39,488 bases of DNA from sequence record PV833354.1. One strand, written 5' to 3'. Below, piece by piece: positions 6,712 to 8,272 of this stretch (positions within the stretch are counted from its first letter, which is position 1; each line of letters opens with the position of its first letter). The stretch comes from Escherichia phage vB_Eco_ZCEC02. The notes under the pieces are model-generated. The model did no database searches. It was not told where the DNA came from and worked only from the letters and a program-made list of their open reading frames with translations. The position numbers were made by a program, and so were the translations under genes.

Positions 6712-7404
6712 ATGGCTAAAGAGCAACTGAAGACTTTCACCACTCCGGTAGCTGGTATCGTTGAGCCTTACGCATGGCTGAACAAAGCAGACACCAAGTT
6801 TAACGAGCGTGGTGAGCATAAGGTTAACCTGACATTCGACCTGAGCGACCCGAAGGTCCGTAAGATGATTGATGTCTTACAGAAGATTCACGACGATGCG
6901 TATGCGAAAGCACTCGCAGACCACGAGAAGAACCCACCTCAGGTTCAGCGTGGCAAGAAGCCTATTGAACCACGTGAAGGCGACATGCCGTGGATTGAGA
7001 ATGGTGACGGTACTGTTACCCTTAAGTTTAAATGCTTTGCGTCTTACCTGAAAGACGGCAAGTCCGAGCCTATCGTATTACGGTTCTACGACACTGATGC
7101 TAAACTCATCCGGGACGTCCCGAATATCTGCGCTGGGTCTAAGATGAAGGTCAAGTTTAAAGTCCTGCCGTTCAAGTGGAACGCTGCGACTGGTGCAAGC
7201 GTTAAGCTCCAGCTTGAGTCATGCCTTCTGGTAGAACTGAAGGAGTGGAAAGGCGATGGTGGTGATGGTGGCTGGGGTGATGATGAAGACCTTGGTACTG
7301 GCTACAAAGCGCCAACCGATGGTGACTTCGGTGACGATGACTTCGGGTCTGACGATGATGGTCAGGACGATGGTCAGAACAACGCAGGCGACTACGACTT
7401 TTGA
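6712..7404 (+). CDS. 2.5: single-stranded DNA-binding protein (230 aa)
   Basis: Colinear with T7 gp2.5, including the acidic C-terminal tail ending in DF. Confidence 0.95.
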   Translation: MAKEQLKTFTTPVAGIVEPYAWLNKADTKFNERGEHKVNLTFDLSDPKVRKMIDVLQKIHDDAYAKALADHEKNPPQVQRGKKPIEPREGDMPWIENGDGTVTLKFKCFASYLKDGKSEPIVLRFYDTDAKLIRDVPNICAGSKMKVKFKVLPFKWNAATGASVKLQLESCLLVELKEWKGDGGDGGWGDDEDLGTGYKAPTDGDFGDDDFGSDDDGQDDGQNNAGDYDF

Positions 7405-7835
7405 AAAGATTAGACCCTAAGTCGTTGAGGTCTAAGATATTAAGCAATATAGCAGAAGAGGATGGATGCTGGATATGGCAGAAATCTTTCGGCTCCCATG
7501 GATACGGAAACATTGGCACTGGAGGCGGTAGAAATGAAACCGTCCACAGAGTATCATTCGAGGTATTTAATGGACCGATTCCTACTGGATGCTTAGTTCT
7601 TCACTCATGTGACGACCGTAGGTGCTGTAATCCTGAGCACCTGCGGGTAGGGAGTTATAAGGAGAATTTAACAGATAGAGACACGAGGTCCCGTCGTGTG
7701 ATTGTTATGAATATGGAGTTAGCAAGAGAGGCTAGAGCTTCGGGCATGTCATGTAGAGAACTAGCGGCTAAATACGGCCTGACTTACTCCTCAATGTTTA
7801 AATTACTGAGAGGTGATACATGGCGAGAACAATGA
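7401..7835 (+). CDS. HNH homing endonuclease (about 144 aa); start codon uncertain (no in-frame ATG, TTG at 7401 or 7428)
   Basis: Motifs GCWIWQ...GYG...HRVSFEVFNGPIP.G..VLHSCDDRRCCNPEHL plus a C-terminal helix-turn-helix-like tail; AT-rich atypical codons (AGA, ATA, TTA); overlaps the gene 2.5 stop and the gene 3 start. Confidence 0.8.
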   Translation: MKRLDPKSLRSKILSNIAEEDGCWIWQKSFGSHGYGNIGTGGGRNETVHRVSFEVFNGPIPTGCLVLHSCDDRRCCNPEHLRVGSYKENLTDRDTRSRRVIVMNMELAREARASGMSCRELAAKYGLTYSSMFKLLRGDTWREQ

Positions 7836-8272
7836 GTCGAGGACATGCAGTCGGGGCGTATCGCTCTGGACTGGAGGCAAAGAACCAAGAGTGGCTGGAG
7901 AAGAACGGAGTTAAGGCTGACTATGAGATGTTCTACCTTAATTATGTAATCCCAGAGTCGACTCATAAATATACGTGCGACTTTATTCTACCAAACGGTA
8001 TCATGGTTGAAACAAAAGGAATTTTTGACTCAGAGGACCGTAAGAAGCACCTATTGATTAAAGAGCAGCACCCAGAGTTAGACATCCGGTTCGTGTTCTC
8101 AAGTTCCCGCTCCAAGTTATACAAAGGGTCTCCAACCACGTATGGCGCATGGTGCGAAAAGAACGGCTATAAGTATGCCGATAAGTTCATCCCGGTTGAG
8201 TGGCTGCGAGAGGCGACTGTACGTCTGCCCTCAGGTATCCTCATCCCCAAGAAGAAAGGAGTTAAGTTATGA
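7820..8272 (+). CDS. 3: endonuclease I, Holliday-junction resolvase (150 aa)
   Basis: Strong match to T7 gp3 (FRSGLE, VETKG, DRKKHLLI.EQHPELDIR.VFSSSR.KLYKGSPT.YG). Confidence 0.95.
   Translation: MARTMSRGHAVGAYRSGLEAKNQEWLEKNGVKADYEMFYLNYVIPESTHKYTCDFILPNGIMVETKGIFDSEDRKKHLLIKEQHPELDIRFVFSSSRSKLYKGSPTTYGAWCEKNGYKYADKFIPVEWLREATVRLPSGILIPKKKGVKL

Follow-up and report, generated by a model that had tools for sequence, protein, structure and literature searches.

Introduction

An open reading frame (ORF) encoding a putative HNH homing endonuclease lies between genes 2.5 and 3 in the genome of Escherichia phage vB_Eco_ZCEC02 (record PV833354.1), whose 39,488 nucleotides (nt), analysed over their full length, are called the window here. 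The closest well-known counterpart is gene 2.8 of phage T7, which shares with the window ORF its place between genes 2.5 and 3, the gene order 2.5-HNH-3-3.5 and membership of the HNH_3 family (139 versus 144 amino acids, aa). A tblastn search aligns residues 9-135 of the window HNH protein with T7 positions 9864-10241 at 36.6% identity (expectation value, E = 3e-9). Like the window gene, T7 gene 2.8 has no ATG start and begins with a GTG directly after the TAA of gene 2.5, so that a non-ATG start at this slot has a long-standing precedent. However, gene 2.8 belongs to another lineage, and its start abuts rather than overlaps the gene 2.5 stop codon. It has been treated as a homing endonuclease gene (bioRxiv 10.1101/2025.09.07.674715); no biochemical activity of its product is reported in the literature that we found.

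Free-standing endonucleases of phage T4 co-convert flanking DNA and exclude the markers of rival phages (PMC2988022). The T4 genes mobE and mobA, and the SegG-type systems of intronless homing, resemble the window HNH gene in being free-standing between essential genes. The AUG of mobE overlaps the stop codon of nrdA (UAAUGA), which has been read as a coupling that limits expression, and mobA has a predicted GUG start (PMC2988022). However, these genes belong to another phage family and have other targets, and the T4 systems rest on crosses and cleavage mapping, whereas the window case rests on sequence comparison. In ICP1 phages, a phage group different from that of the window, homing endonuclease genes are described as sitting where recombination tracts between related phages begin or end (PMC10448857).

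Closer to the window gene are slot genes that we refer to as type A, found in Escherichia phage KM02, in the Klebsiella phages vB_KpnP_23 (XAG93739.1), KP32 isolates and mtp1, and in Escherichia phage 536_P3, which have in common with it the motif CWIWQKSFGSHGYGNIGTGG, the slot and a TTG start within a TTTTGA overlap. The coding sequence (CDS) of vB_KpnP_23, a Przondovirus, is already annotated as 'HNH homing endonuclease' from the TTG; mtp1 and 536_P3 belong to Teetrevirus. The window protein is 54-57% identical to the Klebsiella-phage members. From the comparisons set out below, we consider it likely that the window ORF is a functional free-standing HNH homing endonuclease gene, I-HmuI-like and a relative of T7 gene 2.8, in a 2.5/3 slot used by at least three lineages, and that it spread by flank-converting homing, its flanks having since been reassorted.

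An intact HNH endonuclease gene

The element and its catalytic core are located as follows.

7401-7835, plus strand: free-standing HNH endonuclease gene, 144 aa, with a predicted N-terminal helix and beta-strands, HNH core and C-terminal helical DNA-binding region
7542-7667, plus strand: HNH_3 catalytic core (Pfam HNH_3), residues 48-89 (HRVS...LHSCDDRRCCNPEHL...N)

The initial annotation had placed an HNH ORF with clear catalytic motifs between genes 2.5 and 3, and profile searches bear this out. Residues 48-89 match Pfam HNH_3 (PF13392) with 51.4 bits against a gathering cut-off of 24.8 (E = 8e-14), and a match to zf-His_Me_endon falls under its own cut-off (22.5 versus 27). All catalytic and metal-binding residues are kept (H49, R50, H68, C70, D71, C75, C76, N77, P78, H80 and N89), as are the 16 columns that are invariant in a 22-sequence alignment (C23, W26, G34, Y35, R50, G58, H68, C70, D71, C75, P78, H80, L81, G84, N89 and D92). 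The ORF is intact, with no frameshift or internal stop of the kind by which the initial annotation proposed to recognise a pseudogene. Compared with KM02, the ratio of nonsynonymous to synonymous divergence (dN/dS) is about 0.06, although synonymous sites are saturated, 49 of 109 same-residue codon pairs being identical where 42 are expected by chance; the ORF is under purifying selection.

The AlphaFold2 model of the protein has a mean per-residue confidence (pLDDT) of 89.3, with values of 94-98 over residues 1-20 and a helix at residues 6-15. The top solved-structure match in Foldseek is the HNH nicking endonuclease I-HmuI of Bacillus phage SPO1 (PDB 1u3e; probability 0.99, 145 columns, 18% identity), with a weak E of 0.012 and a template modelling (TM) score of 0.44, as expected for an elongated multi-domain protein. 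I-HmuI shares with the model the N-terminal beta region, the HNH core and the C-terminal helical DNA-binding part, over nearly the whole model, and differs in being intron-encoded, whereas the window gene is free-standing. Nicking by the window protein is only an expectation.

The nearest protein among 5.8 billion clustered proteins is 80% identical, and KM02 is the sole close relative of the HNH gene among 50,697 phage records (74% identity in nt, 80% in aa). The window HNH is therefore new at the sequence level, in a class that is already known.

Composition of the HNH ORF and of gene 3

The genes of the window have, as mean ± standard deviation, a G+C content (GC) of 0.503 ± 0.024, a GC at third codon positions (GC3) of 0.555 ± 0.058 and a codon adaptation index (CAI) of 0.696 ± 0.054. 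The segments of interest compare with these values as follows.

7401-7832, HNH ORF: GC 0.447, GC3 0.417, CAI 0.527
7820-8065, 5' part of gene 3: GC 0.439 (the same over 7838-8065), GC3 0.488, CAI 0.627
8066-8269, 3' part of gene 3: GC 0.510, GC3 0.632, CAI 0.628

The AT-rich and atypical codon usage that had been attributed to the HNH ORF is confirmed by its CAI, which is lower than that of any of the 39 called genes (z = -3.1), and by its GC, at the 3.5th percentile when set against in-frame genic segments of matched length; its GC, GC3 and CAI are all at or close to the lower extreme of the genome. For gene 3, the annotation had judged the first 300 nt or so, up to 8130, to look similarly atypical, and had named a uniform composition of the gene as the observation that would speak against this. 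Gene 3 is not uniform: the GC of 7838-8065 is at the 2.7th percentile of matched-length in-frame genic segments, and that of 7900-8049 (0.387) is below all 9,316 other in-frame genic 150-mers of the window, whose minimum is 0.400. The claim stands for GC and GC3, with a shorter extent, since the atypical stretch stops at about 8065, some 246 nt into the gene; it does not stand for CAI, which fails to separate the two halves.

Divergence is confined to the borders of the slot

The panel compared with the window comprised 23 related loci, of which deposited phages supplied 14 and IMG/VR 9, a few being duplicates. The IMG/VR scans gave few close relatives, some of them copies of deposited phages that we treated as non-independent. 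The initial annotation had called for a comparison with relatives lacking the insert, and such relatives are abundant: at least 138 Kayfunavirus records have an empty slot (uninterrupted match across the junction, at least 95%), and among the loci examined the slot is empty in 10 distinct ones, occupied in 13 and carries a deletion remnant in 1. Two tracts of the window diverge from the empty state.

7350-7395, plus strand: left divergent tract, codons of the gp2.5 acidic tail, a TH20-like allele, recognised by its drop in identity
7838-8065, plus strand: right divergent tract, an AT-shifted 5' part of gene 3 that is foreign to the backbone, recognised by comparison with HNH-less genomes

Within 6200-9700, divergence from HNH-less genomes is limited to 7300-8099. 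Over 6200-7349 and 8100-9700, the most similar HNH-less genome matches the window at 0.97-1.00, and this best identity drops to 0.57 at 7300-7399 and to 0.67-0.82 at 7850-8099. The left tract is 0.93 identical to TH20, a carrier of another type of slot HNH (type B, see below).

In the right tract, the 228 nt that follow the conserved RGH codons, only 18 of 61 same-residue codon pairs are identical to those of the empty-site allele, where 26 would be expected at full saturation, against 60 of 65 (92%) in the remaining 200 nt of gene 3; the protein is conserved, with a nonsynonymous divergence (dN) of 0.13. The tract is an old foreign allele held by purifying selection, with a sharp join to the backbone at about 8065. 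It stands out far more strongly in this comparison than in its composition. Saturation was measured here by the count of identical codons against the expectation from genome codon usage, in place of the Nei-Gojobori proportion of synonymous differences (pS), whose values of 0.94-1.02 suggested a more-than-saturated divergence that we rejected as an artefact of two-fold sites at saturation.

The same contrast runs through the panel. The HNH-less loci (n = 11, 10 distinct) carry a single tract allele, at least 98% identical among them, with a GC of 0.50-0.52 and a GC3 of about 0.60, which is also the composition of the remainder of the gene. Other tract alleles, 67-82% identical to the empty-site allele, are present in each of the 14 occupied or scarred loci, with a GC of 0.417-0.496, which does not overlap that of the empty loci, and a GC3 of about 0.49. 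The end points of the tract vary among occupied genomes (about 7990, 8035 and 8061-8065, the only ones used, as scattered polymorphisms towards the end of gene 3 misled the automatic tract-end rule in five genomes), and with growing distance from the slot, fewer occupied alleles depart from the empty one.

In three segments, 7847-7858, 7888-7901 and 7925-7951, the one allele of the empty sites is not matched by 9-10 of 10 occupied-slot alleles; over the 24 nt from 7928, every occupied allele has at least 11 differences. These three segments are a candidate target or immunity region of the slot endonucleases.

HNH genes and flanking tracts reassort as separate modules

The HNH genes found in the slot fall into three lineages, A (window, KM02 and L100, an ENA scaffold designated MUNK18-1 scaffold_159), B (Penshu1, PE3-1, TH20 and SHAK9454) and C (Emlis, HC13 and UFJF_EcSW4), which are mutually 53-62% identical at the DNA level. 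The flanks do not follow these lineages. The gene 3 tract of the window is 99% identical to that of Penshu1, which carries a lineage B HNH, and at most 77% identical to those of other phage records; for L100 the tract identity is 95%, against only 74% between its HNH and that of the window. The gp2.5 tail allele of the window matches TH20, again of lineage B. Conversely, the HNH ORFs of KM02 and L100 are 97-100% (99%) identical, with identity falling to 0.62 directly on both sides. This last comparison spans L100:1440-2100 and L001:2141-2860 (L001 being KM02), and the drops lie in the gp2.5 tail and in the 5' part of gene 3.

Because HNH and tract alleles are mismatched in this way in Penshu1, L100 and KM02, the locus consists of three modules, the tail of gp2.5, the HNH ORF and the 5' part of gene 3, which reassort separately and meet at breakpoints lying at the gene 2.5 stop and near 7835-7860. 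The pattern is compatible with recurrent exchange driven by nucleases at a single site, in which one HNH may also displace another, and singles out no donor for the window tract.

Loss also occurs. In L024 (IMG/VR UViG_2974604219; L024:1440-1520), deletion has left a remnant of only 62 nt of a type B HNH gene, whose first 18 codons now run in frame into gene 3 (MKLKEKLEAYSEVSPGGCS-MSRGH...). The 5' tract of gene 3 is still divergent and AT-shifted in this genome, and is 93% like that of KM02. Taken together, the features of the tracts and of the slot are those expected where homing endonuclease genes are gained, spread and lost with conversion of their flanks, the process described for T4 (PMC2988022).

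Weighing the homing interpretation

The initial annotation had proposed that a homing event co-converted the flank from a donor phage. The part of this proposal that holds is the association: the AT shift and the divergence occur only where the slot is or was occupied. The part that does not is the tie between the present tract and the event that delivered this particular HNH allele. Several observations weigh against the homing interpretation as we put it. The gene 3 tract is common to Penshu1, which has an HNH of another lineage, and is absent from KM02, so that a simple one-step co-conversion together with the window allele is not shown by these alignments. The near-identical HNH genes of KM02 and L100 are flanked by different tracts. 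The gp2.5 tail is acidic and of low complexity, and its divergence is weak evidence. The difference in tract GC between occupied and empty loci (Mann-Whitney p = 2.6e-5) has an inflated significance, since the sampled loci are related and the p value overstates their independence. On the side of the protein, the Foldseek match to the I-HmuI structure is statistically weak, a PDB sequence search with the HNH protein returned chance-level matches only, and we found no literature reports of cleavage, nicking or inheritance bias for this protein or its close relatives.

The best of the other explanations is that the HNH gene is kept for a benefit to the phage, such as interference with rival phages or the blunting of a host defence, rather than by homing, and that the mosaic flanks result from ordinary recombination among T7-like phages. 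According to a preprint, the GAPS4 defence is weakened by phage HNH homing endonucleases, T7 gp3.8 among them, even if their catalytic activity has been abolished, and a T7 mutant without genes 2.8, 3.8 and 7.7 was competed against the wild type (bioRxiv 10.1101/2025.09.07.674715). Purifying selection on the ORF would fit a useful protein, and the loose linkage between HNH alleles and flank tracts would also be consistent with such a scenario. However, the divergence is found only at the two borders of the slot, within 3.5 kb that are otherwise 97-100% identical, and only in genomes whose slot is now or was formerly occupied; generic mosaicism would not put both breakpoints and an AT shift at one junction. 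We therefore regard phage benefit in place of homing as unlikely; the two are in any case compatible, since a homing gene can also serve its phage.

Less probable still is that the 5' part of gene 3 varies on its own account, for example through selection on the N-terminal half of endonuclease I, with the HNH genes as mere neighbours. The clustering of amino-acid changes at gp3 residues 35-60 or so across alleles would agree with this. Yet the low dN of the tract at saturated synonymous sites argues for purifying rather than diversifying selection, and the ten distinct HNH-less genomes are at least 98% identical in the tract. Moreover, the HNH-less SFPH2, from a more distant species, is 88.7% identical to the empty allele with differences spread evenly along the locus, gene 3 included, and shows neither a dip limited to the 5' part nor an AT shift (GC 0.54 in both halves), so that the 5' part of gene 3 is not simply hypervariable. 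On this evidence we rejected intrinsic hypervariability of gene 3, and retain flank-converting homing as the likely origin of the tracts.

A TTG start that overlaps the stop codon of gene 2.5

The HNH gene and the end of gene 2.5 overlap at the following site.

7399-7404, plus strand: TTTTGA overlap, comprising the last Phe codon (TTT) of gene 2.5, its TGA stop at 7402-7404 and the HNH TTG at 7401-7403

As had been noted at the outset, no ATG precedes the catalytic motifs: the first in-frame ATG of the HNH ORF is codon 103, past the catalytic motif. The frame is closed upstream by a TGA at 7356, and no ATG, GTG or TTG lies ahead of TTG 7401, at a junction that reads GAC-TTT-TGA / TTG-AAA. Over the 20 nt upstream, predicted pairing with the anti-Shine-Dalgarno sequence amounts to -2.9 kcal/mol for this TTG, whereas genes 2.5 and 3 and the gene that follows them reach -7.1 to -8.2 kcal/mol. 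An HNH start that overlaps the upstream stop without a strong Shine-Dalgarno sequence of its own fits what is expected of a translationally coupled gene.

The TTTTGA overlap recurs in 8 of the 9 type A members examined, which come from Kayfunavirus, Przondovirus, Teetrevirus and metagenomes (the ENA scaffold L100 and two Logan assemblies) and reach down to about 54% protein identity; beside the window it is present in KM02, L100, vB_KpnP_23, mtp1, 536_P3, L101 and L102/L103. The ninth member, PHB19, is the exception and reads TTTTAATG, with an ATG at the aligned residue and a final Phe codon that is also TTT. Alternative starts in the first 40 HNH codons (TTG 7425 and several ATA/ATT) are unconserved in KM02. 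The comparison thus indicates that TTG 7401, the only start conserved across the subfamily, is the real one, and the initiation at TTG that the annotation had suggested gains the support of three genera.

The final Phe codon of gp2.5 is TTC in T7 and in all examined Kayfunavirus loci without a type A HNH, and TTT in the type A carriers with the overlap, so the T that creates the TTG is specific to carriers of the type A subfamily. Two T7 studies cited in PMC12339929 reportedly found the C-terminal Phe of gp2.5 to be essential. If so, the HNH start would borrow the synonymous position of a constrained codon.

Truncated versions of these genes are found in deposited records. The HNH CDS of KM02 (PQ179042; L001:2370-2642) is given as 90 aa from an internal ATG, the full ORF being 144 aa from the TTG at L001:2208, and that of PE3-1 (KJ748011; L005:2461-2658) as 65 aa from an internal ATG, the full ORF being 149 aa from the ATG at L005:2209. 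In IMG/VR, 10 of 79 HNH_3 ORFs lacked an ATG before G[YF]G; several of these were artefacts of motif placement, and no rate was drawn from them.

The overlap could also be read as a site where ribosomes slip by -1 on U UUU UGA as they finish gene 2.5, giving a gp2.5-HNH fusion with no initiation at UUG. The HNH frame is indeed the -1 frame of gene 2.5, and GAT TTT TGA in KM02, L100 and L101 permits perfect re-pairing of tRNA-Phe beside a slowly decoded stop. However, GAC TTT TGA in the window, vB_KpnP_23, mtp1, 536_P3 and L102 would give a -1 codon CUU with a mismatch at the first position, the aligned residue in PHB19 is a plain ATG, a stimulatory structure was neither sought nor seen, and the start of T7 gene 2.8 lies past the stop codon; we consequently rejected the fusion as highly improbable. 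The least plausible reading, a decaying and unexpressed remnant that has lost its ATG and is heading for deletion, could draw on the missing ATG, the weak Shine-Dalgarno support, the poorest codon adaptation in the genome and the HNH loss recorded by the L024 scar, but was rejected in view of a full-length ORF with every invariant residue, a dN/dS of about 0.06 at saturated synonymous sites and a TTG arrangement conserved across genera.

Overlap of gene 3 with the inserted gene

At its other end, the HNH ORF contains the putative ribosome-binding site of gene 3.

7810-7817, plus strand: Shine-Dalgarno GAGGTGAT for gene 3, inside the 3' end of the HNH ORF (codons AGA GGT GAT), anti-Shine-Dalgarno pairing -7.1 kcal/mol

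The gene 3 ATG overlaps the HNH ORF by 16 nt. In HNH-less genomes, the same ATG overlaps the stop codon of gene 2.5 (TAATG), so that gene 3 would itself be coupled to gene 2.5, and the HNH gene appears to take over the coupled position of gene 3.

Genomic setting

The window is a Kayfunavirus genome (a K1F-like phage of the T7 group); a megablast search with 6700-8300 returned 220 phage records, nearly all of them Kayfunavirus. The local order is gene 2.5, the HNH ORF (7401-7835), gene 3 (7820-8272), and then genes for an amidase and a primase-helicase.

6649-6673, plus strand: phage-RNA-polymerase promoter-like site, CCTAAACTATCACTGTAGGACAGAC, upstream of gene 2.5, identified by motif match
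6712-7404, plus strand: gene 2.5, single-stranded DNA-binding protein, 230 aa, ending in ...DYDF-TGA (Pfam SBB_T7, E = 3e-72)
7820-8272, plus strand: gene 3, endonuclease I (Holliday-junction resolvase), 150 aa (Pfam Phage_endo_I, E = 2e-75)

Promoter-like sites of the form CTATCACT[A/G]TAGG occur ten times in the window, all on the plus strand (696, 4017, 5673, 6649, 14887, 17726, 18714, 23393, 31062 and 36922), and the site at 6649 is the sole one with G instead of A at the variable position. A scan of the whole window found none of them within the HNH ORF, and the site at 6649 probably drives a 2.5-HNH-3 transcript. Scans of 6400-9300 for sigma-70 promoters and terminators stayed at chance level.

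ARAGORN found no tRNA genes in the window. The record of phage vB_EcoP-U8 has an annotated tRNA-Thr between gene 3.7 and the primase gene (L003:3374-3452). A further local mosaic patch lies at the 3' end of the DNA ligase gene (window 5400-5550), where the best identity in the HNH-less panel is 0.32-0.36 and that to Emlis about 0.90.

Discussion

The following model would account for the arrangement of the locus. The phage promoter near 6649 would give a transcript that carries the HNH gene together with genes 2.5 and 3, and ribosomes that end translation of the abundant gene 2.5 message at UGA 7402-7404 would re-initiate at UUG 7401-7403. Given the near absence of Shine-Dalgarno support, little HNH enzyme is to be expected; by analogy with T4 mobE, as well as from the sequence, we infer that expression from UUG re-initiation is low. 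Since the start uses the synonymous third base of the final Phe codon, the insertion would cost gp2.5 nothing, and the 3' end of the element would supply gene 3 with a strong Shine-Dalgarno sequence and an overlapping ATG. In a mixed infection, the enzyme would attack HNH-less genomes, nicking or cutting them close to where gene 3 begins, and repair off an HNH-carrying genome would copy the gene along with a variable length of flank. The last 50 nt or so of gene 2.5 and the first 246 nt or so of gene 3 are probably products of such exchanges, the flanking tracts having since been reassorted independently of the present HNH allele.

For annotation, the consequence is that callers and curators requiring an ATG truncate members of this family, as in KM02 and PE3-1, and the TTTTGA overlap offers a simple rule for locating the start. 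For phage biology, the locus represents a compact natural example of a selfish nuclease gene placed between two essential, coupled genes at little apparent cost, where the element would borrow a synonymous third base for its own start and bring a ribosome-binding site for the gene that it displaces. The zone of 700 nt around the slot is a recombination hot spot with several co-circulating alleles.

More speculatively, the 2.5/3 junction might be a contested site, where HNH genes of at least three lineages displace each other as exact cassettes, between breakpoints located at the gene 2.5 stop and around codons 6-13 of gene 3, each round recoding up to about 76 resolvase codons synonymously. 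Target and immunity would then both reside in 7847-7858, 7888-7901 and 7925-7951, and the UUG within UUUUGA would be an evolved attenuator. We put this forward as possible rather than probable; if true, nuclease conflict, and not drift, would be the main driver of endonuclease I diversity across the genus.

Most work on homing and marker exclusion has been done in T4 (PMC2988022). The 2.5/3 slot extends known principles to a further locus and leaves current understanding unchanged; with more than 200 sequenced genomes, it may provide a population-level system for homing and marker exclusion in T7-like phages.

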